From contig DYNY01000006.1 in NCBI GenBank assembly GCA_020720815.1, forward strand, positions 1 to 60,440: a stretch of 60,440 nt of DNA, written 5' to 3'. Positions 1,418-59,034 of this stretch are shown here, piece after piece. Made by a program: the position numbers and the translations under genes. The notes below the pieces were generated by a model. The model saw nothing but the letters and a program-made list of their open reading frames with translations. It searched no databases and was not told the origin of the DNA. The DNA comes from Candidatus Elulimicrobium sp. GTDB lineage: Bacteria > Patescibacteriota > Minisyncoccia > Phycocordibacterales > UBA918. How positions within the stretch are numbered: the stretch's first letter is position 1; every line of letters starts with the position of its first letter.

Positions 1418-1440
1418 TACGTCCCGCTAAACGGGACGTA
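1418..1440 (-). terminator. hairpin closing orphan 1461-1679
   Basis: TACGTCCCG-ctaaa-CGGGACGTA. Confidence 0.6.
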
Positions 1441-1460
1441 TGTAAGTTGATTTTTTGTAA

Positions 1461-1679
1461 TTACGACGAAGCTAGACGCTCCAGCTCAGGTTTGCAGACT
1501 AGGCGCCCGCTACCATCGCAGGTTTGTCCTGGTCGTTGACCTTTGATTGGAAGACCGTAGTGTGCGGGATAGGTGTAACCTTTACCACCTGGCCCGACGC
1601 CGATACAAAGCTTTTGTCGACAGACTGGGCAGAGCGACTGGTACGATCGGCCGACATTGAGGATTACATCTTGATTCAT
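1461..1679 (-). CDS. 72-aa orphan, putative zinc-ribbon protein
   Basis: ATG 1679 has GGAGT SD 6 nt upstream; CPVC...H...CDGSG motif. The longer 1823 start would run through a terminator. Confidence 0.6.
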   Translation of the reverse strand: MNQDVILNVGRSYQSLCPVCRQKLCIGVGPGGKGYTYPAHYGLPIKGQRPGQTCDGSGRLVCKPELERLASS

Positions 1680-1746
1680 GAGATTACTCCGGCTGGTGAA
1701 CAGGCTATAGTTTTTATAACATGTATATAGGTAAAAACTCAAGACA

Positions 1747-1779
1747 AGTAAAAGCCCCTTGGCTGAAGGGGCTTTTACT
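1747..1779 (-). terminator. intrinsic terminator
   Basis: 14-bp perfect stem AGTAAAAGCCCCTT-ggctg-AAGGGGCTTTTACT. Confidence 0.7.
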
Positions 1780-1825
1780 AAATTGTGATGGGAAATAGCG
1801 AGGAATACCCTTTGCATTTCCACAT
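1778..1825 (-). CDS. candidate 15-aa peptide MWKCKGYSSLFPITI
   Basis: GGAGGT SD (1834-1839) 8 nt before ATG, TGaTATAAT -10 at 1851-1859, terminator overlapping the stop. Confidence 0.45.
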   Translation of the reverse strand: MWKCKGYSSLFPITI

Positions 1826-1893
1826 AGCGTATTACCTCCGCTACCTAAATATTATATCATTCCGATTATAAAGTTGCCAACAAAATCTGGTAC

Positions 1894-1925
1894 AAAAATA
1901 TCCACCACAGTGGGCGGATATTTTT
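1894..1925 (-). terminator. hup terminator
   Basis: AAAAATATCC...GGATATTTTT imperfect stem just after the hup stop. Confidence 0.55.
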
Positions 1926-1944
1926 ACGTTAAAAACAGTGGCGA

Positions 1945-2217
1945 CTATTTAACAGCATCTTTTAGAGCCTTGGCAGCGCGGAACTTTGGAACACGCATAG
2001 CTGGAACCGATACAGTCTCTCCAGTACGTGGGTTACGAGCCTCTCGCTTAGCGCGAAGCTTAGCTTCAAAAATACCAAAACCAGCAACCGATACAGCCGT
2101 ACCATCCTTCATAGCTGATTCGATACTACCAAACACTGTATCTACTGCTCGTTCAGCATCGGCCTTTGTAGAACCGAGTACTTCATGTACTGCGCTGATG
2201 ATATCTGCTTTATTCAT
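1945..2217 (-). CDS. hup: histone-like DNA-binding protein HU
   Basis: MNKADII..., GFGIF, REARNPRTGE, PKFRAAKALKDAVK. Confidence 0.97.
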   Translation of the reverse strand: MNKADIISAVHEVLGSTKADAERAVDTVFGSIESAMKDGTAVSVAGFGIFEAKLRAKREARNPRTGETVSVPAMRVPKFRAAKALKDAVK

Positions 2218-2404
2218 AGAATTGAGAGAATTAACTTTTTAGTGCGATTAAAAATTTTGTGGTGAGTGTCTAACTCATGCACGACGCCGACTGTGTGGCA
2301 TAGGAGTATTATATAGCAAGCTAGAAAAGCTGCCACGTCTTCCTCTGTGTGCTTTTGTGTTGTGTAATTTAATTCACTACTTTTATCCCGGTCAGAATTT
2401 TCGC

Positions 2405-3934
2405 TTAGCGAGCGTAACTTACAACTCGAGTTTCGCGAATTACGTGTACTTTAATCTCTCCTGGATAACGCAAACGGGTTTCGATGGTTGTGGCAATTGT
2501 GCGCGCCAGCGTGTGCGCTTCAAAATCGCTGATAGCTTCAGGATTAATAAGGACGCGTATCTCGCGACCAGCGGCGATAGCAAAGGCTTTATCTACACCA
2601 TTTAAATCAGTCGCGATAGTTTCGAGGTCAGATAACCGTTTTATGTAGTTTTCAATTGAATCACGTCTAGCACCTGGACGACCGCCAGAGATAGCGTCAG
2701 CTACTTGAACGATAATTGATTCTGGAGTTTCGTAAGGATATTCCTCATGGTGAGCCCTCATCGCCAAAATAACTTGTTGATCTACGCCATATTTCTCCAA
2801 GATGCGAATACCAATTTCTACGTGGGTACCGGCAACTTCGTGACTAACGGTCTTACCGATATCATGCAAGAGGGCACCGGCTCGTGAGACTGCTACATCG
2901 GCGCCAATTTCTTCCGCAATAATCGCGGCCATGTGCGCCATTTCCACTGAGTGCCAAAGTACGTTCTGACCGTAGCTAGTGCGGAAGTGTAGTCGACCAA
3001 GAATCATGATGAGGTCAGGGTGAAGGTTTGGTACGTTGGCGTCATAAGCCGCTTTCTCGCCCATCTTTCTGACAATAGAAGCCACTTCCTTACGGGCGGT
3101 ATCAACCATCTCTTCAATCTTGGCTGGTTGAATACGGCCATCTTTTAGTAGGTTTTCCATGGCGACGCGAGCAATTTCTCGTCGGATAGGATCAAAGGAA
3201 GAGAGGACAATATAACCAGGTGTTTCATCTATCAAAACATCAACTCCTGTAGCACGTTCAAAGGCGCGCACATTGCGGCCTTCCTTACCAATAACTTTAC
3301 CTTTTAGATCGTCACTTGGGATTTCCACATGAGCGGTCATAACGTTAGTTGGTACGTTGTTACCAACGCGGTGAATTGCGGCTAAAATCAGATTCTGAGC
3401 CCTTTCTTCAAACGCTTCACTACCAGCGCGTTCGATTTTTTCGATTCGTGCACGTAGGTCTTCAGCTCGTTCCGCTTCCATCTTGGCTACGATTTGATCG
3501 TATGCTTCTTCCAGAGTTAGTTTGGCTACATCTTCTAGTTTCTTTTCAATATCGTTTTTTCGTTCATCTAGTCTTTCTTTGATTGACTTCACTTCGACAA
3601 TCTTGCTTTGGAGTGATTCACGTTGTGAATCAAGATCTATTTGTCTACTATCAATCAACTCTTCGCGCTTCTGCAGGTGTTTTTCTTTTTCCGATAACTT
3701 TTCTTCCTGAGTCTTTCGTTCCGTTTTGGCTTCATCTAGTGTAGCTGCTGCTTTTGCTTCCGCCTTTTCAATTATTTCGACAACCCGTTTTTCTGCTTCG
3801 AGTGTCTTCTCTTTGATGTCTAATTCCAGGGATTGCTTCTTGGATAAGGCATGAAGGTATCGAAAGTAATAGCCAGCTGCTACGCCGAGTCCGAGGGTTG
3901 CGATAATGGCGAGGCCCTGCAAGAATGGTGGCAT
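2405..3934 (-). CDS. rny: ribonuclease Y
   Basis: N-terminal TM, coiled coil, KH domain (KGKVIGKEGRNVR), HD domain (RTSYGQNVLWHS, LLHDIGK). Confidence 0.96.
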   Translation of the reverse strand: MPPFLQGLAIIATLGLGVAAGYYFRYLHALSKKQSLELDIKEKTLEAEKRVVEIIEKAEAKAAATLDEAKTERKTQEEKLSEKEKHLQKREELIDSRQIDLDSQRESLQSKIVEVKSIKERLDERKNDIEKKLEDVAKLTLEEAYDQIVAKMEAERAEDLRARIEKIERAGSEAFEERAQNLILAAIHRVGNNVPTNVMTAHVEIPSDDLKGKVIGKEGRNVRAFERATGVDVLIDETPGYIVLSSFDPIRREIARVAMENLLKDGRIQPAKIEEMVDTARKEVASIVRKMGEKAAYDANVPNLHPDLIMILGRLHFRTSYGQNVLWHSVEMAHMAAIIAEEIGADVAVSRAGALLHDIGKTVSHEVAGTHVEIGIRILEKYGVDQQVILAMRAHHEEYPYETPESIIVQVADAISGGRPGARRDSIENYIKRLSDLETIATDLNGVDKAFAIAAGREIRVLINPEAISDFEAHTLARTIATTIETRLRYPGEIKVHVIRETRVVSYAR

Positions 3935-4013
3935 AGTTCCTTATTTTACGTTGTTAAATTCTCTCAACCGTGACTGTCAGTTCAATCGTACCATACCAGA
4001 AGTATGAGAGGTT

Positions 4014-4054
4014 GTAAAACACCCCGATGAGCCTAGCTCATCGGGGTGTTTTAC
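4014..4054 (-). terminator. clpP terminator
   Basis: 19-bp perfect stem GTAAAACACCCCGATGAGC-cta-GCTCATCGGGGTGTTTTAC. Confidence 0.75.
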
Positions 4055-4068
4055 TGTTCTCTTTCTAA

Positions 4069-4680
4069 TTACTTGTATACCTGGTCCACTATTCCGTAAG
4101 CTTTGGCTTCATCTGCATCCATAAAAAAGTCGCGGTCAACATCATGCTCAATCTTCTGGAGTTTCTGACCGGTCGCTTTGGCGAGCATTTTGTTGAGTTT
4201 GTCGCGGGTCTTTATGATGTGACGGGCAGTAATATCAATATCAGAAGCCTGGCCGTAAGCGCCACCACTCGGTTGGTGAATCATTACTTCAGCGTTTGGT
4301 AGCATAAAGCGCTTGTCTTTTTGGCCTTGCGATAGGATGAGCGAGCCCATGGAGGCGGCCATACCCACACATACCGTAGCCACGTCTGGCTTGATGTGGT
4401 GCATGGTATCAATAATTGATAGGCCAGCGGTCACACTCCCGCCGGGGGAGTTTACATAAATATAAATATCTTTCTTAGGGTCTTCAGATTCTAGGAAAAG
4501 AAGTTGGGCGACGATTAGATTCGCCATTTGGTCTTCAATTTGACCAGTAATAAAGATAATTCGTTCTTTAAGTAGGCGGGAGAATATATCGTAGGCGCGC
4601 TCTCCACCCATGGTCTTTTCAATGACCATTGGCACCAGGTAGTTACTGACGGTTTGGTTTTGTTTTTCTTGGTTTGACAT
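4069..4680 (-). CDS. clpP: ATP-dependent Clp protease proteolytic subunit
   Basis: [32 protein letters not shown]. Confidence 0.97.
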
Positions 4681-4815
4681 ATGCGCTGTATGGTAGCAGA
4701 AAATAACTGGCTCTGCCAGTTAGGGGTTAATTTAATTGCCAGGCCAACTGTTTCTAGTGCTTAGTTATATAGGTGCTCGGCGTGGGCATTATGTTCTTCA
4801 TGAGGAGAAGTGAAC

Positions 4816-5034
4816 ATGAGCGAAGAAAATATTTCTAAGTTACAACCCTCTGAAACTATACCCGAGGTAAAAATGTTGGTGACTGGTTTCATGTTCTGTT
4901 TACATCCAGAAAAATTTGGTGTTTGTGGGGCGACACTCAACACTTTTAGTGCAGACAGTGAATTAGTGAAGTGCATGTACGGACATACTTTTCACGTTGC
5001 CATTGTACGCAAGAAGTTTTTCAAGGCGGAATGA
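4816..5034 (+). CDS. 72-aa orphan, possible Zn-binding (C..C..CxxGH)
   Basis: GAGGAG SD 4802-4807, ATG 4816, hairpin after the stop. Confidence 0.55.
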   Translation: MSEENISKLQPSETIPEVKMLVTGFMFCLHPEKFGVCGATLNTFSADSELVKCMYGHTFHVAIVRKKFFKAE

Positions 5035-5059
5035 TTCTTAAGTGGTTGTTTGAAAAGAT

Positions 5060-5095
5060 AAACCCCCCACGAAGCCGAGGCTTCGTGGGGGGTTT
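5060..5095. terminator. bidirectional terminator between orphan and tig
   Basis: 17-bp perfect stem AAACCCCCCACGAAGCC-ga-GGCTTCGTGGGGGGTTT. Confidence 0.7.
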
Positions 5096-5113
5096 GAACA
5101 TTTCCTGCTTACT

Positions 5114-6286
5114 TTATTTAGTTGCTTCCAGCATTTTCATCACGGCGTTGTTGGTTAGTACGGTTGTGACATAGACAGTCACTCGGTACGGGTCAGCGTC
5201 TTTATATTGAGAAATTAATTCCTTTACTTGAGCTTCCACTTCTTCCTTTTCAGCTACGATTTTCTCGGCCTTAGAAATTTCATTAAGAATTAATTGGAGC
5301 TTAGCTCGCTTTTCCGCTGCTGGTGTCCATTCCGCTTTCAGATCTTCTATGGTTTTGTTTATGTGTTTGAGATAGTCTTCAATTTTTAGATTAGAGCGAC
5401 TGAGGTCTTCTTCCATCTGGGCAAACATCTGATTGAGTTCTGAGTCAATCAAAATCTGTGGTAGTTCGATAGTACTGTCGGCAATAATCGTATCAGTAAT
5501 CTTGGCGCGGTGTTTGCTTTCCACGTCTTGGGCTTTTTGGATAGTTAGATGTTCCTTAATTTTTTCTTTAAAATCTGCGACGTTAGCAAATTGTCCTGGT
5601 TGGCCAAGTCCGGCTACTAGTCCATCGGTTAATTCTGGTAGAGATAGTTTGGCTAGGTCAGTTTCAGTTTCGATAGCCGATTCACCTGCTTCTGGTGTAG
5701 CTGGGGTAGTTTCGGTTTCAGTAGTCTCTGCTTTGTCGGCTCTGGCCTTGGCTTGGATTCGGTCATAGGCCACCTTTTGCCGCAAAATCTCATTGATTTG
5801 TTTTTTAATTTCCTCTTCAGTTACTTCTTTAGATTCCTTACCTTTATTTATCTCGGCCGCGAGCTTTTTATAATCAGGTAGAGTAATGTCAGGAATAACC
5901 GCTACGGTGATAGAAAGCCCTAGTGGGTTATTGGGCGCAAGCTTAGTTAGTTCTACCTTTGGGTGACCGATAGCGTCAATCTTATGTTCCTCAAGAATGT
6001 GAGGGTACATATGAGCGATAGTACGCTCAGCCATTTCACTAAGGATAGACATTTCCCCGAGGTGCTTCACTAAGATATTTTCTGGTACGTGACCTTTGCG
6101 GAAGCCGTCTAATTCAACGTTAGCGCCCAGGTCTTTAATAGCGGCGCCACGTGCCAGCTCTACCTCTGCCCAAGGTATTTCGCCGACAATCTTTACTTGC
6201 GATTGTGGCTCTTTAGTAACGGTAAAAGCGCCCTTAAAATCAATATCATGGGCGTGGTGATCGTGCTCGTGTGAATGTTGTGACAT
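5114..6286 (-). CDS. tig: trigger factor lacking the FKBP/PPIase domain
   Basis: GFRKGHVP ribosome-binding motif, C-terminal SurA-like domain; the middle domain is replaced by a T/E/A-rich linker. Confidence 0.9.
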   Translation of the reverse strand: MSQHSHEHDHHAHDIDFKGAFTVTKEPQSQVKIVGEIPWAEVELARGAAIKDLGANVELDGFRKGHVPENILVKHLGEMSILSEMAERTIAHMYPHILEEHKIDAIGHPKVELTKLAPNNPLGLSITVAVIPDITLPDYKKLAAEINKGKESKEVTEEEIKKQINEILRQKVAYDRIQAKARADKAETTETETTPATPEAGESAIETETDLAKLSLPELTDGLVAGLGQPGQFANVADFKEKIKEHLTIQKAQDVESKHRAKITDTIIADSTIELPQILIDSELNQMFAQMEEDLSRSNLKIEDYLKHINKTIEDLKAEWTPAAEKRAKLQLILNEISKAEKIVAEKEEVEAQVKELISQYKDADPYRVTVYVTTVLTNNAVMKMLEATK

Positions 6287-6437
6287 AGTACGCGCTAGTG
6301 TACGTAAATATAGGATATTTGCAACCAGAAACTAAAGAAAATTTGAAATCCTCAAGGTGCTTATCTGACGTTTTGGGTTATTTAGATATGGCAAACCCCG
6401 CAGGGTTTGCGGGGTGGGGTGGTGTAGGACTTCGACA

Positions 6438-6863
6438 TCACGTCTTCCTGATGACTGCCAACAACTTTGGCACTGTACCAGGGAAGGGTGCTTCCGGTGG
6501 CGTCGGGCAGTTTTTCGGAAGTGGTGTATTCAAAATTGACACCTCCTTGTACCCAAAGAGGTAGAGGTTGGTTCCGTCAGACAGGTCTTTGAAAAGACGA
6601 TGGAGTATTTCAGGTAGCGTGCCAATCACCTGGAACGTCCAGGGAAACTGTACGGTCACCTGGGGGCGCCAGGTTGTATAGGTGACTCCATACATCACGT
6701 ATGCCGTCGGGAAGGCCAACTTCAGTCCAAGAATTTCCCACCGCTTGCACTCAAGTGAGATTTCGCTCAGAGCGAGGAAAATCTCCGATATGGGTGAGTG
6801 ATCGATTCGTGCGAATCCCGCTAGCGTGACGTTATCGAAAGGAACAGTGTGAGAATGAAGCAT
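6438..6863 (-). CDS. orphan hypothetical protein
   Basis: Own TTTACA-17-TAAGAT promoter (about 6912-6940), GAGAG SD, hairpin 6395-6415 after the stop. Confidence 0.55.
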   Translation of the reverse strand: MLHSHTVPFDNVTLAGFARIDHSPISEIFLALSEISLECKRWEILGLKLAFPTAYVMYGVTYTTWRPQVTVQFPWTFQVIGTLPEILHRLFKDLSDGTNLYLFGYKEVSILNTPLPKNCPTPPEAPFPGTVPKLLAVIRKT

Positions 6864-6985
6864 GATCGTCTCTCGAGAAGAACGACAGTGAAAGCACTGC
6901 CACTTTTCATATCTTAGGGGAGGGGAGGGAAAATGTAAAGATTGGATACCAATTTACCACGGTAGTTTTACCCTACGAATGTTGA

Positions 6986-7014
6986 TTGACAGGTGATACA
7001 CTTTTGATACACTT
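6986..7014 (+). promoter_or_regulatory. TA promoter with tandem operator repeats
   Basis: TTGACA 6986-6991, TGaTACACT -10; TGATACACTT repeated at 6994 and 7005. Confidence 0.65.
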
Positions 7015-7022
7015 GGGGTATT

Positions 7023-7250
7023 ATGGCAACAACAAAAACAAGAATCAACGTTAGTTTAAGCGCTGAGGTTGAGCAAGCTCTTAAGGCTTTAGCTAAACGT
7101 GACCAAGTACCTTCCGCTACAAAAGCGGCTGAGCTTTTACGACTAGCTCTTGAGATTGAAGAGGACTATGTATTTTCGGCAATAGCGGATGAGCGACTGG
7201 CAGAAAAGAATATAAAGTGGCTTAAGAGTGAGGAGGTGTGGGGTAAATAG
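7023..7250 (+). CDS. CopG/RHH antitoxin (RelB-like)
   Basis: RINVSLS beta-strand plus helices, acidic C-half; directly upstream of a RelE toxin. Confidence 0.8.
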   Translation: MATTKTRINVSLSAEVEQALKALAKRDQVPSATKAAELLRLALEIEEDYVFSAIADERLAEKNIKWLKSEEVWGK

Positions 7251-7253
7251 AAT

Positions 7254-7526
7254 ATGTACCAGGTTATTTTTCATGTCAAAATTGTTGATGACTTAAAACA
7301 TATTTCACCACCACTCCAAAAGGCAATTAAAAAAGCTATCGAAGAAAAACTAACTACCTCACCAGAATCATTTGGTAAACCGCTTCAGTTTTCACTGAAA
7401 GGGGCTCGCAGTATGAGGGTGGGCAATTATCGAGTAATATTCCGTCTATCAAAATTGATTGTACAAATTATTATGATCGGGCACCGGTCAGTTGTATATG
7501 AGAATATACTAAGACGAAGGATTTAG
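7254..7526 (+). CDS. relE: RelE/ParE-family toxin
   Basis: GKPL...LKGARSMRVGNYRVIF, IGHRSVVY. Confidence 0.88.
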   Translation: MYQVIFHVKIVDDLKHISPPLQKAIKKAIEEKLTTSPESFGKPLQFSLKGARSMRVGNYRVIFRLSKLIVQIIMIGHRSVVYENILRRRI

Positions 7527-7551
7527 ACATTAAGTAGGTAATTATTAAAAA

Positions 7552-7580
7552 TCACCCAAAGCTCGGGGAGCTTTGGGTGA
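7552..7580. terminator. terminator between relE and orphan pair
   Basis: 13-bp perfect stem TCACCCAAAGCTC-ggg-GAGCTTTGGGTGA. Confidence 0.65.
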
Positions 7581-7657
7581 AGTTGCGTTTGTTGGGAGAT
7601 GTCTGGCAGTGAATGAGGAGGGTTATTTTTTATGTTCCAATCCCCTCGATTAGTTGA

Positions 7658-8389
7658 TTAAGCCTGGATCCACTGCTCAGTCCCCTTGGGTCGCCATTCT
7701 CTGACCCACGATGGTCCGATTTCGTCACTTCTCTTGTTGCGACGGAACCAGACACGTACTTGGTCACCAGCGTTGATTGTCTTCCACGCGCTGTATTCGA
7801 TTCCCGGTCTGTCATCTTGGCCGTCAATGTGTACCTTGACTAGGTACCTCGTCCTGGGGATACGTCCAGTATTGAGGGGCACAGAATATTTTCCTTCAAC
7901 TTCGACAACCGCATACTCATCGTCTCCATACGGGGACAGACGACGGAAGAGGCGAAAGCGAGACGTTTGGGGTCCAAGAACTTCGAAAGTGGCTGTGGTA
8001 ACGAGCACAATGAGCAAAATATACACAATGAGGAGTAGATGACCAGAAAGAGTGCTCCATCTCGTCTCTTTTGATTGCCCTCCGGGGTGTATTGTGACTT
8101 CACTTCCCATGTCACGTACCTCGTTGGTCCACGTGCAGATGCGAGTAATCTTCCAGGACCCGTTCTTATCGTTGACGCATTTTTCTTGTAGGCGAACAAC
8201 CTCTCCTTCTCGGAGTCGTACGAACAGCCGGGTCTCTAATCGCGGTTGCGATGGGATGTACGTAATCCCATTCACCTTCAGGTTGCCTGTGGGTTGTTGT
8301 TCTACTAGCTCTATATTCTGCGCCTGGGCACACATGCATACCGACAAAAGAAACATCAGAGAGAAAGCAATCCACGTGACGGTTTTCAT
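7658..8389 (-). CDS. orphan membrane protein (signal peptide, one TM, beta-rich C-domain)
   Basis: Signal peptide ending AQA; TM LLLIVYILLIVLV; AAGGGG SD. Confidence 0.65.
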   Translation of the reverse strand: MKTVTWIAFSLMFLLSVCMCAQAQNIELVEQQPTGNLKVNGITYIPSQPRLETRLFVRLREGEVVRLQEKCVNDKNGSWKITRICTWTNEVRDMGSEVTIHPGGQSKETRWSTLSGHLLLIVYILLIVLVTTATFEVLGPQTSRFRLFRRLSPYGDDEYAVVEVEGKYSVPLNTGRIPRTRYLVKVHIDGQDDRPGIEYSAWKTINAGDQVRVWFRRNKRSDEIGPSWVREWRPKGTEQWIQA

Positions 8390-8457
8390 TTTCCAACCCC
8401 TTCAGTGTTGAAATGAACGAAAGGGGCTGCGTGTGACGCGTCCCCTTTGTGTAGGAA

Positions 8458-8772
8458 CTACTTGAGTACACCGTTTTTCTTGAGCGCTTCGAGTACCTCC
8501 TTGTCTTGCTTGGTGAATAGGGAGGCTATCCATTGGCACGTTCGCACTGCAACTTCGAGCAGAAACACGAAGAGCTGTAGGCTATGTACCGCCGCAAGGA
8601 GCGCGAGGGTGTACTTGGGCGGAAGGCCTTGATCGCCACCAGTGAAGCGCCAGCCGTAGTAGAAGTAGGCGATAACACAATCAAAGATGAGGATAGAGAC
8701 GAGCCCTGCACGCGAGAAGCTGATGTGCCACACGGACATGTCAGGTTGGGTACTTTTGAGTGATGTGGTCAT
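8458..8772 (-). CDS. orphan two-TM membrane protein
   Basis: Perfect AAGGAGGT SD (8777-8784); two hydrophobic segments. Confidence 0.65.
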   Translation of the reverse strand: MTTSLKSTQPDMSVWHISFSRAGLVSILIFDCVIAYFYYGWRFTGGDQGLPPKYTLALLAAVHSLQLFVFLLEVAVRTCQWIASLFTKQDKEVLEALKKNGVLK

Positions 8773-8839
8773 GACGACCTCCTTTTAAATGAACGGGGAA
8801 CAAAGTGACTTTGCTTCGTTGGCTAATTTAGCAAAATTG

Positions 8840-8898
8840 TTGACAATAAATCAAAATAGTTGTACTTTATTAATATATTTTAAACTGTTAGTTTAAAA
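8840..8898 (+). promoter_or_regulatory. sigma70 promoter and palindromic operator
   Basis: TTGACA(8840)-17-TACTTT(8863); TTTTAAACT-gtt-AGTTTAAAA at 8878-8898. Confidence 0.65.
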
Positions 8899-8904
8899 AC
8901 ATAT

Positions 8905-9732
8905 ATGGAGAAAACTTTAAGTACAGTCATCAAAGAGAAGCTGGCAACTGGCACTAAGCCGGTTGTCGCTTTGGTAGAGGTGATTGCTAAAGAAGAGCAA
9001 GTAACTATTCAGGGAGTATACAAGGCACTACGTTACCTCAAGGTTTCAGGAGTGGTCACTATTCACAACAAGCAAGCCTCACTATCTTTGGTCTGGCTCG
9101 ATAAAGAACAGCAACGATTACAAAGAACAGCCCAGCTGTACCTAGATGAGCAGTCCTTGGTCGAAAGTTTGGTGAAGAAGCGCTCCAAGGCGAAGTTTAC
9201 TTTTCATAGTATGCGCGACATTGATCATTTTTGGGTGCAATCTTTTGCGATTCTTACCAATGAGCTTGATGTGAAGGAGTATTCATATTCTATTCAACCT
9301 CATGATTGGTATTATTATAGTGATCTTGATAGTGATGCGTTTTGGATTGGAAAGCACAAGGGGCAACAAAGGACATCAAGAATTGTCTTGACTCATGCTT
9401 CTGGTCTTGATTATGTAGTAGTGAGACAGCGCAAGAGTGAATTGGGTCGATTGTTTGAATTTACCCTCAATGAAAATCCACTCAAGCAGAAAAGCTATGA
9501 GTATTACAACGTGATTGGCCCATATGTTTTCAAGGCACTGTTTGATCAGGCTAAAGTCAAAGGGCTAGATGCATTTATTTCTTCCCATTCGCGATTACCT
9601 TTGGAAAAGCCGGATAAGGAGATTCTAAAAAATATTATAGAAAGTGAGGGAAACTATACCTTGCAAATTGAGTATTCGCCCAAGAAAGCTGACGCAATGC
9701 GCGCGAGTGTGAGTAAGTATTTTGAGTTTTAA
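8905..9732 (+). CDS. winged-helix regulator with C-terminal sensor-like domain (TrmB-like architecture)
   Basis: TIQGVYKALRYLKVSGVV HTH/wing; 275 aa. Confidence 0.6.
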   Translation: MEKTLSTVIKEKLATGTKPVVALVEVIAKEEQVTIQGVYKALRYLKVSGVVTIHNKQASLSLVWLDKEQQRLQRTAQLYLDEQSLVESLVKKRSKAKFTFHSMRDIDHFWVQSFAILTNELDVKEYSYSIQPHDWYYYSDLDSDAFWIGKHKGQQRTSRIVLTHASGLDYVVVRQRKSELGRLFEFTLNENPLKQKSYEYYNVIGPYVFKALFDQAKVKGLDAFISSHSRLPLEKPDKEILKNIIESEGNYTLQIEYSPKKADAMRASVSKYFEF

Positions 9733-9742
9733 TAATAAAGAA

Positions 9743-9770
9743 ATCGCGTGAAGCAGGAGCTTCACGCGAT
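9743..9770. terminator. terminator between convergent genes
   Basis: ATCGCGTGAAGC-agga-GCTTCACGCGAT. Confidence 0.65.
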
Positions 9771-9792
9771 GAGAAGTGTCTTGATTGCCTCT

Positions 9793-10224
9793 CTACGAAA
9801 GGTAATAGCAAATGAGCGTATTACCAAGGAGGAGGCTAACGATAACCACCATACACATGACCAATAGTGTGGTTGGTTTTAGTTGACTCAAACACGCGAT
9901 GAGCCTGTCTCAAAGCGGTTTTGGGCAGAGCGCCCCCGTCAGTGTTGTTGCTACTGTCATAAGAACGAGAAATGCGAACAAATACATTGGGAGTTGCAGG
10001 ATACTGCCGAATGCACAGAGAGAGGCTTTCCAATCACAGAATTGATTGGTAGGCCTGCTTAAGGCAGCTTATGCTTCAGGTGCAAAGAACAACGTGCCCA
10101 AAAACCACAAGGCCAGAAGGATGAGCGAGGAAGCTACTCTTTGCTTAGCTTTTCTCGGGTTGTGCGCATATGACCAAAGGTCAAATAGTGGCAAGAGAGC
10201 AAAGATCAAATAGTAAGTACTCAC
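9793..10224 (-). pseudogene. four-TM orphan membrane protein with two in-frame stops
   Basis: GAGGAG SD then GTG 10224; one frame continues through TAA (10069-71) and TGA (9910-12) to TAG 9793-95, with further hydrophobic segments. Confidence 0.6.
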
Positions 10225-10325
10225 AGGTTTCTCCTCTGAAGGGTTGGGGATCGGTCCGAAAAACATGATTACACAAATCCCTTGGGATAGTCGCTTTTTA
10301 CGACTAATTTGCTACTATAATGTGC

Positions 10326-11075
10326 ATGAATAGTCACCAGCTAAAACTACTCGGGCTGACAGTTAACGAAACCAAAATCGTTAAGGCACTTGGTCATGTA
10401 CCGATGTCTCTAGCTGAAGTAGAAAAGAAAACCACACTAGCTCACGCTAGTGTGGTAGATACACTCCGGCGACTCACCAGTAGAGGAGTGGTAAAAGTAG
10501 TTCACTCACAAAAGCGAAAAACTTATACGTGCGAAATAAGCAAGCTATTTAATGGGGACGCAGCTATCAACAAAAAGTCGTTTGGAAATATAGAAGTGTA
10601 CGAAGGAAAGGAGGCTCTGCTGTCATTAATAAGTACTGAGCTCATAAGGAACCGACACGGTCGACTACTTTCTTTTCATGGGGAAGAGATTGGTAAGGGT
10701 TGGCTCGGGATTCTTGATCCGCGGGAAATACAAAAAAGAAATGAATTGATTGTTGAACATGACATCATCGTGGAAAGGTTTGTCCCCCAGAGCGGATACC
10801 GAAGGCTCTTTAAGTCGCTACCCACTACTTGGCAGAAGACCATGATTGGTCGGACTCATGTCACCTATTTCTTGCCCGATGAATACTTTCAGACTAAGAC
10901 CGAACTCATGATGTTTTCGGACGTGGTTATGGTGTATGAAACCCACAATCAGCGGATTACTTTATTTAGAGACAAAGAAACGGTGAAGTTGTATGCCAGC
11001 CTGTTTGAAATAATACGTACAGTTGGTGTTAAAATAAATTCAGAGGAAGAGTTTGTAAGTTATCTGTATAGCTAA
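10326..11075 (+). CDS. TrmB-family transcriptional regulator
   Basis: LKLLGLTVNETKIVKAL...HASVVDTLRRLTSRGVV, IEVYEGKEAL; upstream inverted repeat TAGTCG-N7-CGACTA at 10288-10306. Confidence 0.75.
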   Translation: MNSHQLKLLGLTVNETKIVKALGHVPMSLAEVEKKTTLAHASVVDTLRRLTSRGVVKVVHSQKRKTYTCEISKLFNGDAAINKKSFGNIEVYEGKEALLSLISTELIRNRHGRLLSFHGEEIGKGWLGILDPREIQKRNELIVEHDIIVERFVPQSGYRRLFKSLPTTWQKTMIGRTHVTYFLPDEYFQTKTELMMFSDVVMVYETHNQRITLFRDKETVKLYASLFEIIRTVGVKINSEEEFVSYLYS

Positions 11076-11147
11076 CATCTGACGTACACCTAGAATCTAA
11101 TTGCTGGTTATTCGTAAAACCCTTAATTGTTCTGCTATAATTTAATC

Positions 11148-11543
11148 ATGAAGCCAGAAATATTAGATACAGAGGAAGAATTTTCGCTGGTTAAGCGCGC
11201 CAAGAGTTTTTCTTATGCTGGAAGAGGAGTTTGGGTATTTATCAAGACAACTCACAATGCTTGGATTCATCTGGCTTTGTTTGCTCTCGGTATTATGCTG
11301 GGATTATATTTTGGCATAACTAAGGTCGAGTGGATGATGTTAGTATTTGTCAGTGGATTTGTCCTGGTGGCTGAGGCTTTCAATACCGCCATTGAGATAG
11401 ATATTGACCTTACTTCACCGGATTATCATCCCTACGCCAAGGATACCAAAGACGTCGTGGCTGGAGCTGTGTTGCTGGCTGCTTCCACAGTCTTAATTAT
11501 TGGGGTGATGATTTTTGTTCCGTACATAGTAAATCTAATTTAA
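11148..11543 (+). CDS. dgkA: diacylglycerol/undecaprenol kinase (DgkA family)
   Basis: SFSYAGRG, EAFNTAIE, AKDTKDVVAGAVL. Confidence 0.9.
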   Translation: MKPEILDTEEEFSLVKRAKSFSYAGRGVWVFIKTTHNAWIHLALFALGIMLGLYFGITKVEWMMLVFVSGFVLVAEAFNTAIEIDIDLTSPDYHPYAKDTKDVVAGAVLLAASTVLIIGVMIFVPYIVNLI

Positions 11544-11565
11544 TTTGAAAGCTAGGATTATACTT

Positions 11566-11892
11566 ATGTCTAGTTTTGAATCTCAACCCTATAAACAAAC
11601 AAGTAAAGTTAATCAGCCACCTTTACCTATTTCCGGAAGAGAAAGTATGGAAGTACGGAGAAAGTTTGCTCAGCAAGAGGTGGCTGAGTTGTTAGCCTTG
11701 TTAAGTGAAAAATTAGGTAAAGCAGTTCAGCTTGAATATTTGTCAGAAGAGTTTGGTGAAGCTGGAGCGAATGTAGAGCAGTATTTCCAAGAAATTATGG
11801 CCGGTCAAGTTGAATATAATTTAATAGCTAGTCAAGCTCGCTTATTCAAAGCCAAAAATATTCTGATAAATCAAATCGAAGAGAAACACTAA
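11566..11892 (+). CDS. hypothetical protein
   Basis: Open frame with host-like composition; TAGGAT -10 just upstream. Confidence 0.55.
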   Translation: MSSFESQPYKQTSKVNQPPLPISGRESMEVRRKFAQQEVAELLALLSEKLGKAVQLEYLSEEFGEAGANVEQYFQEIMAGQVEYNLIASQARLFKAKNILINQIEEKH

Positions 11893-12118
11893 TTTGGGTT
11901 TGAAATGTAGGATACGAGCGAATTTTGGTTTTAATCTTGCAGGCATAGGCTCTGATGAGGGACAATAAACAAAAGTGGTTTGTTTTTGATAATAGTCAAA
12001 AAACTCAGCAGAATAATACCAAAAGTATTTACAGGAGTAGTCATGACCGGATGCTTTGGCTGGACGGGATTGGGTTTAGGCAGTACTCTTTTGTCAGTCT
12101 AGTTACAGAGGAGAACCC

Positions 12119-12298
12119 TTGGACACAAATCCTAATCAAGTTTGGCCGATGTCTCGTGCCTTTACCGACCGGCTGACCCGACTCGTTGAATGTTGTTCCA
12201 TTGATTCGCCCGAGTGGAAAGTTGGTTGGATAGAAGTTGAAGCTCTGGCGAACGAGGAAGTGAGGCTGTTGCCAAAGCCACCCGAGCCCACAGAATAG
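12119..12298 (+). CDS. 59-aa orphan not in the ORF track
   Basis: GAGGAG SD 12108-12113, TTG start, MDTNPNQVWPMSRAF...PKPPEPTE, hairpin 12298-12324 at the stop. Confidence 0.5.
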   Translation: MDTNPNQVWPMSRAFTDRLTRLVECCSIDSPEWKVGWIEVEALANEEVRLLPKPPEPTE

Positions 12299-12348
12299 CC
12301 CCCAGAACCTTTGGTTCCGGGGGCATTCATATTTAAATAATCTTTCTG

Positions 12349-12726: not shown

Positions 12727-12732
12727 AATTAT

Positions 12733-53952: not shown

Positions 53953-54669
53953 ATGGAGATTATTCGTAGAGATATGCCGGCGATGGCGGCCGGTGAGGTC
54001 ATGACAAAATTGCTAGTCCAATATAAAGACACGCCTGTTTTATTATTACTTTCCGGTGGCTCGGCTTTTTCAATTTTGGAAAATATCCCTGCCTACGTAT
54101 TGGATTCCCGGATTACACTAGGAGTACTTGATGAGCGTTATGACACTGATGAGTCCATTAATAATTTTATTCAGCTAAGTAAGACAGCTTTTTTTAACCG
54201 GGCGGTTCAATCTGGCTGTTTCTATATTGATACGCACGTAGAGTCCGGTGAGACTCTACAAAACCTTGGTTTACGTTTTAATCACATCTTAAGTAAATGG
54301 CGAGAAGATAATCCGGGTGGAGTGGTGTTGATTACTCTTGGCTTGGGTCAGGATGGTCATACCGCCGGTCTTATGCCTGGGTATGTGGAAGAGGTGAGTT
54401 GGTCTGGAGTCTTGGCGATGGGTTATGAAGTTGATACTTTGGTTAATCCATATACCAAACGCGTTACAGTTACGCCACGTTTTCTTAAAACTGAGGTCAC
54501 CGGGGCAATTGCCTATGTAGCCGGAGCTTCGAAGTGTTCAGTTTTGAATCAGCTTCTTTCAGCTGAGGGTGAGATTGAGATTTGTCCGGCTTTACTCTGG
54601 CACTCTATACGCGGACTTACCATTGTTACCGACTGCCAAGAGGGTAATTATTCTACTCTTTCAACATAA
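53953..54669 (+). CDS. pgl: 6-phosphogluconolactonase
   Basis: LSGGS, DERY, GLGQDGHTA; in the zwf-gnd operon. Confidence 0.82.
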   Translation: MEIIRRDMPAMAAGEVMTKLLVQYKDTPVLLLLSGGSAFSILENIPAYVLDSRITLGVLDERYDTDESINNFIQLSKTAFFNRAVQSGCFYIDTHVESGETLQNLGLRFNHILSKWREDNPGGVVLITLGLGQDGHTAGLMPGYVEEVSWSGVLAMGYEVDTLVNPYTKRVTVTPRFLKTEVTGAIAYVAGASKCSVLNQLLSAEGEIEICPALLWHSIRGLTIVTDCQEGNYSTLST

Positions 54670-54731
54670 ACCATTTGCGGAGGGCGGATATTGGGGCGGT
54701 GGGCGAAGCAAATGGTTTGATGTTGGAAGAG
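54656..54731. repeat. long inverted repeat with G-rich loop
   Basis: CTCTTTCAACATAAACCATTTGC ... GCAAATGGTTTgATGTTGGAAGAG. Confidence 0.6.
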
Positions 54732-54752
54732 GGCGAGACTATCTGTAATCGG

Positions 54753-54995
54753 TTGCTGATTACCCATAAATACCGTATAGTTACGCGCAAACAAGGAACG
54801 GGTAGATAATAATAGTACTATTATTTACGATGTTTCGCGTACGTTGGTTTTTGTTTTACCCTTAGACAAAAGCCGAAGCGCTAATGAATACAGGGCGAAA
54901 TAATGTCCATTAGGGTATTTTTTCGTCCAGTATTCATTAAAATGAATGGTAAGTGGTATTTAATATTTAATATATAGTAGATAGTAGATAAATTT
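54753..54995 (+). promoter_or_regulatory. fusA promoter and structured leader
   Basis: TTGCTG-17-TATAGT; hairpins at 54782-54841 and 54882-54939. Confidence 0.55.
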
Positions 54996-57167
54996 ATGGC
55001 ACGAGAATTTCCAGTAAGTCGTATGCGAAACTTCGGTATCGTAGCGCACGTAGATGCAGGTAAAACCACGACTTCAGAGCGTGTACTCTTCTATACCGGT
55101 ATGAGTCACAAGATTGGTGAAGTGCACGATGGCGCCACAGTCACTGACTGGATGGAGCAAGAGCGTGAACGTGGTATCACTATTACCGCGGCCGCTATTT
55201 CTTGTAATTGGTCAAAGACCGATGTGGCTGATCGAAAAGATCGATCACAAATGTATAACTTTAACATTATAGATACTCCAGGACACATAGACTTTACGGC
55301 TGAAGTAAAGCGTTCAATGCGTGTGCTCGATGGTGCGGTAGTAGTATTTGACTCAGTAGCAGGTGTAGAGCCACAATCAGAAACCAACTGGGGTTATGCT
55401 GACGAGGCTGGAGTGCCACGTATTTGTTTCATCAATAAGATGGACCGCCTAGGAGCTAGTTTTGAAAAGTCTTACGCAAGTATTTTGGATCGTCTATCCA
55501 AAAAAGCTGTGCGTATTCAATTACCATGGGGAGCTGAAGATAATTTCCAAGGAGTAATTGACTTAATCAAGATGAAGGCTTTTGTATTTGAAGGTGAGAT
55601 GGGCACAACTGTCCGTGCTGTAGAGATACCTGAAGAACTCAAGGCAGATGCTGAAAAATATCGAGCTGAGCTTATTGAACGAGTAGTTGAACATGATGAT
55701 GTTTTGATGGAGGCTTACCTTTCTGGTACTTTGCCCACCAACGAACAATTGATGGTTACTCTTCGTAAGGCAGTATTAGCGAACGAGCTTTTCCCAGTAA
55801 TGACTGGTTCAGCCCTTAAGAATATTGGTGTACAACTAGTATTAGATGGTGTGGTTGATTATCTACCAGCGCCAACTGACTTACCACCAGTTAAAGGAAT
55901 TAATCCAAAGGATGATAGTGAAGTAACTCGGCTACCAGATGATTCTGAACCTTTTTGTGCTTTGGCTTTTAAATTGCAGACCGATCCATTTGTGGGACAA
56001 CTTACTTTCTTCCGGGTGTATTCCGGAGTAGTAAAGGCGGGAAGCTATATCTACAATGCCACCACCGGTGAAAAAGAACGTTTGGGTCGTATCGTACGAT
56101 TGATGGCCGACAAGCGAACTGAAATTGAAGAAGTGTACGCTGGAGAAATCGCTGCTGGAGTAGGTCTTAAGGAAGTGAAAACCTCGCACACACTTTGTGA
56201 TGAAGCCAATCCAATTATTCTTGAACAAATTAAATTCCCCGAACCGGTGGTAGCTCTCCGGGTCGAACCAAAAACTAAGGGTGACCAAGAGCGTATGGGT
56301 GTAGCTCTTAAGAAGTTGGCAGATGAAGATCCAACTTTTAAAGTGTCTACAGATGAAGAAACGATGGAGACTATTATTGCTGGTATGGGTGAACTTCACT
56401 TGGAAATTCTTGTTGACCGTATGAAGCGTGAGTTTAATGTGGAGGCAAATGTAGGTGCACCACAAGTAGCTTACCGAGAAACCATTCAGCGTGAAGCCGA
56501 GGCCGAATACAAATACGTTAAGCAGTCTGGTGGCCGTGGACAGTATGGTCACGTTAAGATACGGATTCGCCCAATGAAACCTCTAGAAGAAGGAGAGACT
56601 GTGAAAAAGAACATAACCCGCGAAGATCATTACGAATTCATCAACAATATTAAGGGAGGAGTTATTCCGGGTGAATTTATTCCAGCGGTTATGAAGGGAT
56701 GTAAAGAGGCGATGGCGCGTGGTTTCGTAGCTGGTTATAAGATGGAAGATATTTCAGTTGAGTTATTTGATGGTAGTTTCCATGATGTTGACTCATCAGA
56801 AATTGCCTTTAAATTGGCTGCTATACATGCTTTTAAGGAAGCAGCTGCTAAGGCCGGAGCAGTGCTATTGGAACCAGTAATGAAAGTCGAGGTGCGTACA
56901 CCAGAACAATTCATGGGTGATGTTAATGGAAACATTTCTAGTAAGCGTGGTCAGGTGGAGGGTATGGGTGATATCGGTGATAAGAAAGTTATTACTGCTA
57001 AGGTACCACTATCAGAGATGTTTGGTTACACCAACATGCTCCGCTCAATGACTCAAGGACGTGCATCAATGATGATGGAATTTCATCATTACGATGTCGT
57101 TCCACCAAACGTTGCTAACGAAATTAAAAAGAACCGTGGAGTGAAGGATGTAGAGACAGAAGAATAA
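54996..57167 (+). CDS. fusA: elongation factor G
   Basis: AHVDAGKTT, ERGITI, DTPGH, NKMD, GMGELHL, KQSGGRGQYG. Confidence 0.98.
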   Translation: MAREFPVSRMRNFGIVAHVDAGKTTTSERVLFYTGMSHKIGEVHDGATVTDWMEQERERGITITAAAISCNWSKTDVADRKDRSQMYNFNIIDTPGHIDFTAEVKRSMRVLDGAVVVFDSVAGVEPQSETNWGYADEAGVPRICFINKMDRLGASFEKSYASILDRLSKKAVRIQLPWGAEDNFQGVIDLIKMKAFVFEGEMGTTVRAVEIPEELKADAEKYRAELIERVVEHDDVLMEAYLSGTLPTNEQLMVTLRKAVLANELFPVMTGSALKNIGVQLVLDGVVDYLPAPTDLPPVKGINPKDDSEVTRLPDDSEPFCALAFKLQTDPFVGQLTFFRVYSGVVKAGSYIYNATTGEKERLGRIVRLMADKRTEIEEVYAGEIAAGVGLKEVKTSHTLCDEANPIILEQIKFPEPVVALRVEPKTKGDQERMGVALKKLADEDPTFKVSTDEETMETIIAGMGELHLEILVDRMKREFNVEANVGAPQVAYRETIQREAEAEYKYVKQSGGRGQYGHVKIRIRPMKPLEEGETVKKNITREDHYEFINNIKGGVIPGEFIPAVMKGCKEAMARGFVAGYKMEDISVELFDGSFHDVDSSEIAFKLAAIHAFKEAAAKAGAVLLEPVMKVEVRTPEQFMGDVNGNISSKRGQVEGMGDIGDKKVITAKVPLSEMFGYTNMLRSMTQGRASMMMEFHHYDVVPPNVANEIKKNRGVKDVETEE

Positions 57168-57189
57168 TTATTGAAATACCTCGAGAAGC

Positions 57190-57227
57190 TACAAAAGCGC
57201 GACCCCGTAAGGGGTCGCGCTTTTGTA
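57190..57227 (+). terminator. fusA terminator
   Basis: 17-bp perfect stem, GTAA loop, T tail. Confidence 0.8.
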
Positions 57228-57244
57228 ATAGAATAAAAAAGAAA

Positions 57245-57290
57245 GCCGTTTGGTGAAGAGTACTCAAAAGAGTACTCTTCACCAAACGGC
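57245..57290 (-). terminator. terminator of orphan pair
   Basis: 21-bp perfect stem followed by T-rich sequence on the minus strand. Confidence 0.72.
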
Positions 57291-57314
57291 GATGCTCGTT
57301 CTGGGGTGATTGAT

Positions 57315-57740
57315 TTACAGCTCTGGGTAATGGCGACCGTTGGTGCGATGGCCGTTAGAATGAACAAGGTAAACCACATCCGGGTGCCCGTAGCAGACAG
57401 AAATGACCAGGTGGCCATTGTTCTCGTACGGTGCGAAATACCAGTGTGTCATCGACCCGACCCGGATTTCCGCCTGCTCGCGCAAAGCTCTACGCACCGG
57501 CGTACCCGGGTAGCCATCGGCGACAAGTCGGTTGATTACCTCGTCAATGCTCTTGAAGCCGGCTCGGGCTAACTGCTCTGGTGTAAACCCAAGCAGGGTC
57601 TCGCCGGGCAAGAGCCAAACCTCATAGGCCGGCTTACCCATCGCCTTTCCCAGGCCGACAACGGACGAGTTATGGGCACAAGAAACCTGTCGAAGGTCGA
57701 GTCTACCTAGAGTGGCGACGTAGTTGATAAAGTTGTTCAT
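57315..57740 (-). CDS. orphan hypothetical protein
   Basis: AAGGAG SD; ATGA overlap with the upstream ORF. Confidence 0.65.
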   Translation of the reverse strand: MNNFINYVATLGRLDLRQVSCAHNSSVVGLGKAMGKPAYEVWLLPGETLLGFTPEQLARAGFKSIDEVINRLVADGYPGTPVRRALREQAEIRVGSMTHWYFAPYENNGHLVISVCYGHPDVVYLVHSNGHRTNGRHYPEL

Positions 57741-58165
57741 AACTGAGTCTCCTTTAAAGTTTTCTCTAGTAGGGTTAGGGCCAATTCACTACCACAGATG
57801 ATAGAAATAGCCTTACCCTCCCTGTTCTTGCCGATCCAGGGGATTACTCGAACTCGCCATTGTAGGTTATCTGGATTCTTAAACCTTGGTATGAACTCAA
57901 TCAAGATTTTGTACTGCAACCGCTTCCAACGGACAGCATCTTGATAGTGTTGTAGACAAAGCTCCTCTGGCTTGTAAAAGTCACTGGATTGAAAAGCACC
58001 ACTATCACTCTCGAAGATGACAAAGTGAAAGAATGGCTGGTGTGCAAAATTACTCGACAACAGCACGACTGGATCGTGCGGTGGCTTATCGCCAATGATG
58101 ACTTCGGCGATAGTGAGACGACGCTCACAATCATTTAGAGGGGCACTGTTTCTGATGGGGTACAT
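57737..58165 (-). CDS. orphan hypothetical protein
   Basis: GGGAG SD (58174-78) supports ATG 58165 (MYPIRN). Confidence 0.62.
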   Translation of the reverse strand: MYPIRNSAPLNDCERRLTIAEVIIGDKPPHDPVVLLSSNFAHQPFFHFVIFESDSGAFQSSDFYKPEELCLQHYQDAVRWKRLQYKILIEFIPRFKNPDNLQWRVRVIPWIGKNREGKAISIICGSELALTLLEKTLKETQL

Positions 58166-58389
58166 ATTGAAGTCTCCCGTTTTCAAAAGCCTCATTTGAG
58201 GCGGACTAAATTCTGTTGATTATATGAACATATTTTTTTAAGAAAGTAAACAACAAAAAAATAGGTGAATGTTTGTCTATATGTGATTTATATGGTATAA
58301 AATATTGCTTGGTATGGTACCGAGCACGGGTAATTTTGGCACCCGTAGTGTTCTTCTACTTTTGTATGGGTCTCAGGAGGGCTCAGAGC

Positions 58390-58875
58390 ATGACAACTTT
58401 CTATAAGTCAAAGTTCAATCCGGCAATTCCGTTGTTAAGAACGGACCCGAAGAAGAACTCACCTACCCTTGAAGAAATGTGGCGGGCAAGTCGGGGATCG
58501 TTCCATGTGGCCGTGTTGTTTGTATCTGCCAGTGGCCAGGTCCTCGTCAGTCGTCAGCCTGACGAAACCTGGAGCTTGCCAACTCGGCAGGGTTTTGGGC
58601 CTCGAATGGACTACGACTCCATCGTCGGTCGCATCGCGTCGCCACTTGGGCTGACTTGCTCAGCCCTACAGCTCGTTCCCTTGTGCGAATACAAGGGGAC
58701 AGAGCATCAGTACGCCCTGATCAGCGCTTTTGCCTGCGATCAGCGTTTCTGGCAACGAGAGCATGTTCTTTGGATTTCACCAGATGCGACCCGTCAGGGC
58801 ATCGTGCTGGATGACCTTGCCAGAGTTGGAATCGGTCGACATTTGGAGGCCATTTCCAATCTCCAGGCGGCCTAG
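58390..58875 (+). CDS. orphan, possibly degenerate Nudix fold
   Basis: AGGAGG SD 58375-80; HVAVLFVSASGQVLVSRQPDETWSLP; cTTCGg-capped terminator 58909-58941. Confidence 0.6.
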   Translation: MTTFYKSKFNPAIPLLRTDPKKNSPTLEEMWRASRGSFHVAVLFVSASGQVLVSRQPDETWSLPTRQGFGPRMDYDSIVGRIASPLGLTCSALQLVPLCEYKGTEHQYALISAFACDQRFWQREHVLWISPDATRQGIVLDDLARVGIGRHLEAISNLQAA

Positions 58876-59034
58876 GGTCGCTAAAAGTCACCGCATAAGT
58901 GACGAATCAGTGGTCGGAACCTTCGGGAACTGACCGCTTTTAATTAGATTATAAAGTAGGTCGACTTCCTTTTTGGCTCTAAACACCAGGACCTAGTTCA
59001 CTTTTCACCAGTTTTCGGCTTTTACCGCCTTGCC

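Follow-up and report, generated by a model that had tools for sequence, protein, structure and literature searches.

The window studied here is a stretch of 60,440 bp from Candidatus Elulimicrobium sp. (assembly GCA_020720815.1, contig DYNY01000006.1), which corresponds to contig C35 of the 856,221-bp genome G000 (49 contigs, 40.8% GC). It carries core genes including RNase Y, clpP, tig, nusA, type IV pilus genes, pgk and recJ, followed by a split ComEC, rpmB, rpsL, rpsG, fusA, and tuf. Most of these were named by eye from their translations, with Pfam confirming nusA, ComEC, an S2P protease and a few others, and they are syntenic with five congeners (G010, G007, G003, G004, and G006). Between them lie islets, 8,105 bp in total, of small open reading frames (ORFs) that a first-pass annotation had listed at 13 intervals and regarded as a flux of captured cassettes. 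Small ORFs are indeed present at or near all 13 intervals; however, we favor, at a probability of roughly 0.6, reading the islets as small accessory genes of this Paceibacteria lineage that form a distinct class and are maintained, not as freshly captured cassettes. The genus comparison set comprised 127 congeners besides G000 (128 genomes), of which G119 is the nearest by rpsG (88% at the nucleotide level), and G088 and G119 were the closest genomes in genus-wide DNA searches.

Layout, composition and families of the orphan units

The leftmost unit holds a Cys-rich 72-aa ORF on the reverse strand (1461-1679), with a Shine-Dalgarno (SD) motif (CCGGAG) 7 nt before its ATG and a terminator hairpin at 1418-1440. 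Its C-terminal part matches contig C27 of G119 (46% identity, E = 1.4e-7), and in a longer frame (1461-1823) residues 1-37 match conserved DNA beside gene 1874 in all five relatives. Another 72-aa ORF (4816-5034, forward strand, GC 0.397), preceded by the SD GAGGAG, is only putatively coding, given that its length did not stand out from shuffled sequence (p = 0.17). Around tig and clpP, the reverse strand carries a 141-aa orphan upstream of tig (6438-6863; SD degenerate in G000), a 243-aa membrane protein (7658-8389) composed of a signal/transmembrane helix, a beta domain, a transmembrane helix, and an OB-like beta-barrel, and a 104-aa hydrophobic, membrane-like ORF (8458-8772) with the SD AAGGAGGT. 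The two 65-aa ORFs in the spacer 9733-10319 and the 59-aa ORF at 12119-12298 (forward strand) cannot be told apart from chance (shuffle p = 0.51 and 0.25, respectively).

Further along, a block of 0.56-0.60 GC contains a 151-aa forward-strand ORF (16543-16998; 133 aa from the ATG at 16597, SD ACGGAG; shuffle p = 0.008). The interval first given for it, 16597-16883, does contain an ORF, but its coordinates mix two frames: the frame from the ATG at 16597 remains open beyond 16883. The coding status of this ORF is doubtful, weakened by its Arg/Lys-rich translation. On the reverse strand, the GC-rich block 32591-33153, with overlapping ORFs of 133 and 70 aa (shuffle p = 0.012), is missing from five relatives, whose spacers here measure 23-176 bp. 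The unit at 35167-35570 (reverse strand) sits between the rpmB promoter and the S2P start and consists of an 88-aa ORF (35218-35484) with the SD CCGGAGA and a terminator at 35175-35218; at this site, G010 has 65 bp only, and the alignment ends at 35166. Downstream of rpsG lies a 229-aa protein with two hydrophobic, transmembrane-like segments (37723-38412, reverse strand; SD TAGGAGA, terminator 37677-37701). Finally, the gap between fusA and tuf holds a reverse-strand operon of two genes overlapping by 4 nt (57315-58195; terminator 57245-57290), encoding a protein of 152 aa (142 aa from the ATG at 58165; SD GGGAGAC) and one of 141 aa (SD AAGGAGA), and, across a block at 58184-58301 that is conserved with G119, a divergent 161-aa orphan (58390-58875, forward strand; SD CAGGAGG).

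The description of the units as self-contained (SD, ORF, terminator) and compositionally distinct was borne out. Eleven of the 13 intervals have a GC content (0.46-0.56) above the genome mean of 0.408 (the first-pass annotation had described all of them as GC-richer than their flanks), while intervals 1778-1825 (0.396) and 4816-5034 (0.397) fall below it. The 16 orphan ORFs have a G+C content at third codon positions (GC3) of 0.54, whereas 30 core genes stand at 0.36 and 30 accessory genes outside the orphan set at 0.37 (Mann-Whitney p about 1e-7). Given that these accessory genes, which include toxin-antitoxin pairs and zwf-gnd-pgl, have native GC3, the shift is specific to the orphans and not a property of accessory DNA generally.

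As initially suggested, the orphans belong to no recognizable family, with none of 17 ORFs reaching the Pfam cut-off. PHROGs and PADLOC returned nothing meaningful for 10 orphan proteins, and Rfam gave no match at the gathering threshold; in E-value mode, seven sub-threshold matches appeared, all of them outside the GC-rich orphan ORFs, with the match closest to an islet falling on the terminator hairpin of tig. The islet DNA does not recur anywhere else in the genome and the orphans of the window have no paralogues. The 141-aa protein at 57315 has a single homologue (78% identical) in 5.8 billion proteins, and the 243-aa protein has six distant homologues among 1.84 billion representatives; neither has a significant match in the 127 congeners. 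The N- and C-terminal halves of the 243-aa protein match different proteins, i.e., two rare modules are joined, and one homologue adjoins RNase Y (rny) in a Kaiserbacteria metagenome-assembled genome (MAG), likewise with an SD and a terminator. Residues 150-243 of its model, the OB-like barrel, have a predicted local distance difference test (pLDDT) score of 90-97, and fold searches of PDB and BFVD with the model returned weak OB-fold-like entries but nothing at E <= 0.001. The large protein searches found no homologue of the 161-aa and 229-aa proteins, the 152-aa protein had no usable Protein Atlas match, a metagenome scan with protein P0005 had no match, and three queries against viral contigs retrieved no relatives. 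A model of a 141-aa protein (pLDDT 36) was unusable. By eye, several other orphans have hydrophobic, membrane-like segments.

Strong terminator hairpins, with perfect GC stems and a T tail as in intrinsic terminators, follow the orphans at 1461, 7658, 9836, 35218, 37723, and 57315. The first-pass annotation had all but one of the islets ending at a hairpin, which holds for these six units; the hairpin at 5060-5095 terminates the core gene tig, that at 12298-12324 terminates the core gene 12349-12726, and our scan listed none after 6438 or 58875. Terminator-like hairpins were enriched in two of three scanned stretches (45 against 18.5 expected and 26 against 8.3), with 4 against 5.5 expected in the stretch 54000-60440. 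Most islets had been described as having a visible promoter; promoter-like sites were not enriched over shuffles (39 against 32.6, 17 against 16.6, and 6 against 10.8).

Shine-Dalgarno motifs in a genome without the complementary 16S tail

A GGAG or GAGG ending 4-11 nt before the start was found in 11 of 14 orphans, one of 30 core genes, and one of 29 accessory genes, so that the SD initially assigned to every islet is present in most, with three orphans lacking it. Some orphan starts had been placed beside an SD in the first-pass annotation, and the signal was therefore examined across the whole genome. Among the 78 ORFs with GC3 >= 0.47, the SD motif peaks sharply at gaps of 4-11 nt (0.33 and 0.26 per ORF, versus 0.04-0.12 at other gaps), while the positional peak is weak among the 633 ORFs of low GC3. 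When an SD at any early start is counted, the shares of the two groups are 45% and 15%, respectively (p = 4e-9). The leaders of native genes are A/U-rich; 62% have U at position -1, and G is not enriched.

The 16S rRNA of G000 (on contig C3) and of all four congeners checked ends in GGATTAATTCC, with the anti-SD motif CCTCC missing; across a class-wide sample, CCTCC is kept in 10 of 31 tails. The orphans thus have the motif spacing of SD-led genes, but not the complementary CCUCC in the 16S rRNA. An altered SD matching the new 16S tail was considered and rejected, given that complementary 6-mers are barely enriched before native genes (13% versus 7%), a slight excess explained by the AT-richness of these k-mers. 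The genuine 16S gene of G000 lies at C3:25383-26840; two other contigs carry rRNA fragments, a eukaryote-like 18S 3′ end on C25 and, on C48, a 16S 3′ end with CCTCC unlike that of the genus, and both contigs are probably mis-binned.

Translation independent of the SD is familiar from the Bacteroidota, in which few genes are SD-led and CCUCC is kept in the 16S rRNA. The likeness is that core genes here start behind A/U-rich leaders without an SD while a minority is SD-led; the difference is that CCUCC is gone from the 16S rRNA. In the Parcubacteria, an anti-SD motif has been detected in only 48% of members, and the SD helix is supposed not to form there (Tsurumaki et al. 2022, PMC9297842), consistent with the loss in this genus. 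The accessible part of that paper makes no mention of a minority gene class conserving a canonical SD, unlike what is seen here. Our literature search found anti-SD loss and horizontal gene transfer (HGT) in Patescibacteria, with no description of an SD-led, GC-rich gene class. The association of GC-richness and SD recurs in G010 (10/18 versus 8/71).

Orthologues in a sister species and turnover across the genus

Homologues of three of eight orphans tested (35-47% identity) were found in G119, two of them shown to be syntenic. The 161-aa orphan and its G119 homologue share 35-36% identity (E = 5e-11 and 3e-16), and the order in G119 (fusA, an opposite-strand ORF, the 161-aa homologue, the tuf leader, and tuf) has the layout seen in G000, the opposite-strand ORF taking the place of the unit at 57315-58195, to which its similarity is weak (E = 0.027). 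The homologue keeps its SD (AGGAGA), and GC3 is 0.59 in G000 and 0.62 in G119, compared to 0.34 and 0.45 for fusA. Non-synonymous divergence (dN) for this pair is 0.73 versus 0.03 for fusA, with a ratio to synonymous divergence (dN/dS) of about 0.46 that is only rough as dS is saturated; the reading frame has stayed intact, as has the SD. The block 58184-58301, which we infer to hold the promoters of both divergent units, is 77% identical to G119 over 119 nt, while the ORFs on either side can no longer be aligned at the DNA level. For the 141-aa orphan at 6438, G119 likewise has a homologue (47% identity, E = 6e-36), located between tig and the same antitoxin gene; its SD is GGAG 6 nt before the ATG in G119 and has decayed to CGAG in G000. 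With fusA and tuf at 96-98% identity to G119 against 35-47% for these orphans, the latter behave as taxonomically restricted, fast-evolving genes (ORFans), having homologues in the closest species only and low identity beside conserved neighbors. The five nearest genomes yielded no homologue of the 229-aa, 152-aa, or 104-aa protein (for the 104-aa protein, with a limit of E < 0.05).

These comparisons span a large distance. The proportion of synonymous differences (pS) is 0.73 between G000 and G010, dS is about 1.5 to G088, and fusA dS is 1.6 to G119 (saturated). Since synonymous sites are saturated against all these genomes, absent DNA similarity says little about the age of an islet, and a junction analysis against G010 was limited for the same reason.

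The expectation that islet sites differ in content between species was confirmed by comparing orthologous intergenic sites. Spacer lengths range over 273-2331 bp at fusA-tuf and 83-725 bp at clpP-tig, and a comparison with the syntenic 80 kb of the five congeners recovered no orphan. The same hotspots are occupied in G010 by other ORFs, also GC-rich and SD-led. In G088, ORFs that resemble those of G000 in size, strand, and GC3, and that have SD-like sites, lie at rpmB-S2P (93 aa, same strand, with an SD) and downstream of rpsG, without detectable similarity; beside tig, G088 lacks the 141-, 243-, and 104-aa orphans. Downstream of rpsG, seven species have an ORF of 181-229 aa opposite the rpsG strand with hydrophobic N-terminal segments, those of like size and strand at the 37723-38412 site being in G088, G010, G033, G127, G085, and G114. 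The ORFs of G010, G127, and G033 are homologous (23-26% identity), a family present in only three of 128 genomes, and all three have a canonical SD at the correct spacing and a GC3 of 0.52-0.57, which speaks against independent insertion at this site. G003, G004, G119, and G081 have other genes or none there. Homology was not supported for the positional pairs of the G000 229-aa protein with the G010 210-aa and G088 201-aa proteins, or of the G000 88-aa with the G088 93-aa protein, the raised z-scores probably being driven by hydrophobic segments.

Several observations concern the same spacers and their neighbors. Between a TTGCA...TACTAT promoter and the tuf start lies a conserved, structured 5′ leader (59034-59237), 89-90% identical in G010 and G119 and without an Rfam family, in which 20 of 31 predicted pairs stay paired through changes on both sides across 11 congeners; tuf has no SD behind it. 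In G119 (L076 941-1456), an extra 171-aa, GC-rich, opposite-strand ORF without an obvious SD lies between tig and the orphan homologue, and G000 has nothing at this site. The antitoxin/ParE-toxin pair at 7023-7526 has 93% protein identity to G088 (L075), compared to 85% for tig, and is placed differently there relative to the diacylglycerol kinase gene; its high identity and different place argue that this module moved or was exchanged. The G088 copy of the diacylglycerol kinase gene aligns as two separate segments, possibly owing to a frameshift. In the spacers of G006 and G007 (L017-L020, L029-L032), sequences of 27-42 nt recur at 90-97% identity, which looks like a small dispersed repeat family missing from the G000 islets. 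ComEC is split (30120-34721) into separate genes for the Competence/DUF4131 part (30120-31766) and the metallo-beta-lactamase part (33837-34721), and in all five congeners a superoxide-dismutase-like gene (by eye) lies on the opposite strand between them. The only tRNA call in the window, an ARAGORN tRNA-Ile(aat) at 20561-20635, lies inside a 408-aa ORF (20383-21609) that reads as pilC-like, and is probably false; a tRNA serving as insertion target was thus not found.

Proposed origin and maintenance of the orphan class

The orphan ORFs are best explained as real small genes, most of which look long-resident and very fast-evolving. Each unit is read as its own transcription unit: a GGAG(A)-type SD 5-10 nt before the start, G/C-ending codons and, for most units, an intrinsic terminator are seen, and a separate promoter is probable. 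The units would occupy permissive, terminator-insulated gaps between core operons, with several likely encoding membrane or secreted proteins. Evolving perhaps 25 times faster than fusA at non-synonymous sites (one pair measured), they would become unrecognizable beyond the sister species and so seem species-specific, with the gain, loss, and replacement shown at the same hotspots across the genus coming on top of such in-place divergence. As GC-richness and the SD survive saturated synonymous divergence in orthologues, they are not the unameliorated scars of recent import that they had been taken for; selection, or a biased process such as GC-biased conversion, presumably keeps both. GGAG could pair weakly with the conserved tail GGAUUAAUUCC through UUCC. 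Any insulated monocistronic unit has this shared layout, and dedicated insertion machinery is not required to explain it.

Some results weigh against this account. Five of the eight orphans tested have no detectable homologue even in G119, and the different genes that G119 has downstream of rpsG mean that replacement is real. The dN/dS value carries little precision for the reason given above. The association between GC-richness and the SD is missing in G003 (5/20 versus 16/64) and G004 (0/11 versus 10/66), and, being strong in G000 and G010, is lineage-dependent. In four of 11 spacers (4681-5113, 9733-10319, 11893-12348, and 35113-35581), the longest ORF is no longer than chance. The account also needs an SD to function without an anti-SD. 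A tentative extension, which we hold only loosely, would have two initiation regimes: an AT-rich core without an SD, and a GC-rich, fast-evolving, mostly envelope regulon initiated via GGAG(A), with GC-ending codons and the SD forming a switchable expression code for host-interaction genes. Recognition of GGAG(A) might then proceed via the residual UUCC, a protein factor, or a ribosome subpopulation.

The view closest to the first-pass annotation is that the islets are recent imports from GC-richer, SD-using donors, whether other bacteria or their phages or plasmids, taken up as DNA into permissive intergenic sites and still bearing donor composition and SDs, a scenario we find rather unlikely. 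It would account for a composition and an SD foreign to a genome whose 16S rRNA lacks CCUCC, for the orphans without homologues in the nearest genomes, for the varying hotspot content, and for the 243-aa homologue at another site, beside rny, in the Kaiserbacteria MAG; SD-using relatives exist, given the canonical anti-SD in 10 of 31 class tails, and the window itself holds ComEC (Pfam) and type IV pilus genes (read by eye, without a family scan). HGT is documented in Patescibacteria, as far as the accessible text of PMC12455944 goes. Yet no donor emerged from the 5.8 billion and 1.84 billion proteins searched, which yielded the one 78% homologue and six distant ones, and the phage or plasmid origin initially proposed gained nothing from PHROGs (10 proteins) or viral contigs (three queries). 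Repeats were not seen, nor, as first reported, were target duplications; nor did the repeat analysis give any sign of insertion machinery, and no integrase or transposase was noticed, no dedicated recombinase search having been made. GC3 and the SD persist in orthologues across saturated dS, and three orphans are common to G119, two in synteny, which argues against recent capture. Residents had been expected to combine conserved synteny with core-like codon usage; some orphans are conserved in synteny, yet orphan codon usage is not core-like.

Alternatively, GC-rich DNA that does not code for protein, whether regulatory RNA or decayed remnants, could make up many of the small islets, with the scarcity of stop codons letting long ORFs arise by chance. 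This suits the four spacers named above, the translations of 16543-16998 and 32591-32992, which do not look protein-like, the several blocks open on both strands, and the structured RNA (the tuf leader) that shares a spacer with islets 12 and 13. It is nevertheless improbable as a general explanation, given that the longest ORF beats dinucleotide shuffles (p <= 0.02) in seven of 11 spacers, five ORFs have homologues (conserved motifs or 35-78% identity), one domain folds at a pLDDT above 90, SDs lie at the correct spacing, and Rfam finds nothing at its gathering threshold. That foreign fragments were spliced into this candidate phyla radiation (CPR) contig during assembly or binning is very improbable. 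The bin does hold stray rRNA pieces (the 18S-like end on C25 and the unrelated 16S end with CCTCC on C48), but positions 1-20000 are covered, with a single difference, by an independent Logan contig of run X1 (possibly the source sample), runs X2-X4 contain islets 1 and 7 without differences, and units of this kind recur at the same sites in congeners whose assemblies have 2-10 contigs. Runs X2-X4 contain low-depth pieces of the same strain that leave bins 6671-11339 uncovered with no contig joining across, and are so uninformative on presence there.

Among known systems, phage morons share with these units an autonomous promoter-gene-terminator arrangement, a deviant composition, and insertion between essential genes. 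Morons lie in a prophage or phage genome, whereas the units here lie between chromosomal core genes (tig, clpP, rpsG, fusA, tuf) and are partly vertical. Integron gene cassettes are likewise small single-ORF units followed by an inverted repeat, but the units here are single or paired, form no array, end in hairpins of the intrinsic terminator type, and have no attC match in Rfam, an integron integrase not having been searched for. Bacterial ORFan accessory genes, as described in the accessible portions of PMC13012023, PMC12315717, and PMC3514957, are similarly short, family-less, restricted to one or a few sister species, fast-evolving, and of debated origin (import versus in-place). Those of E. 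coli are reported there to be AT-richer than the genome (PMC3514957), whereas the orphans here are GC-richer and carry a translation signal unused by the rest of the genome. The Patescibacteria genomic islands of PMC12455944, in what is accessible of that study, are also variable regions in syntenic small genomes, with competence as the proposed route; most units here span about 0.4-2 kb and hold one to three genes, several are syntenic with the sister species, and mobility genes were not noticed among them, again without a dedicated search.

If the orphans are a maintained class of resident genes, many "species-specific orphans" or "foreign islets" of the CPR may be residents diverged past recognition, and estimates of HGT and pangenome flux would need revision. 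An SD kept at the correct spacing across orthologues of 23-47% identity, without CCUCC, raises the question of how start sites are chosen in about half of the Parcubacteria. A GC3 of about 0.6 against a native 0.36, despite saturation, would also offer a clean test case for codon selection versus GC-biased conversion.

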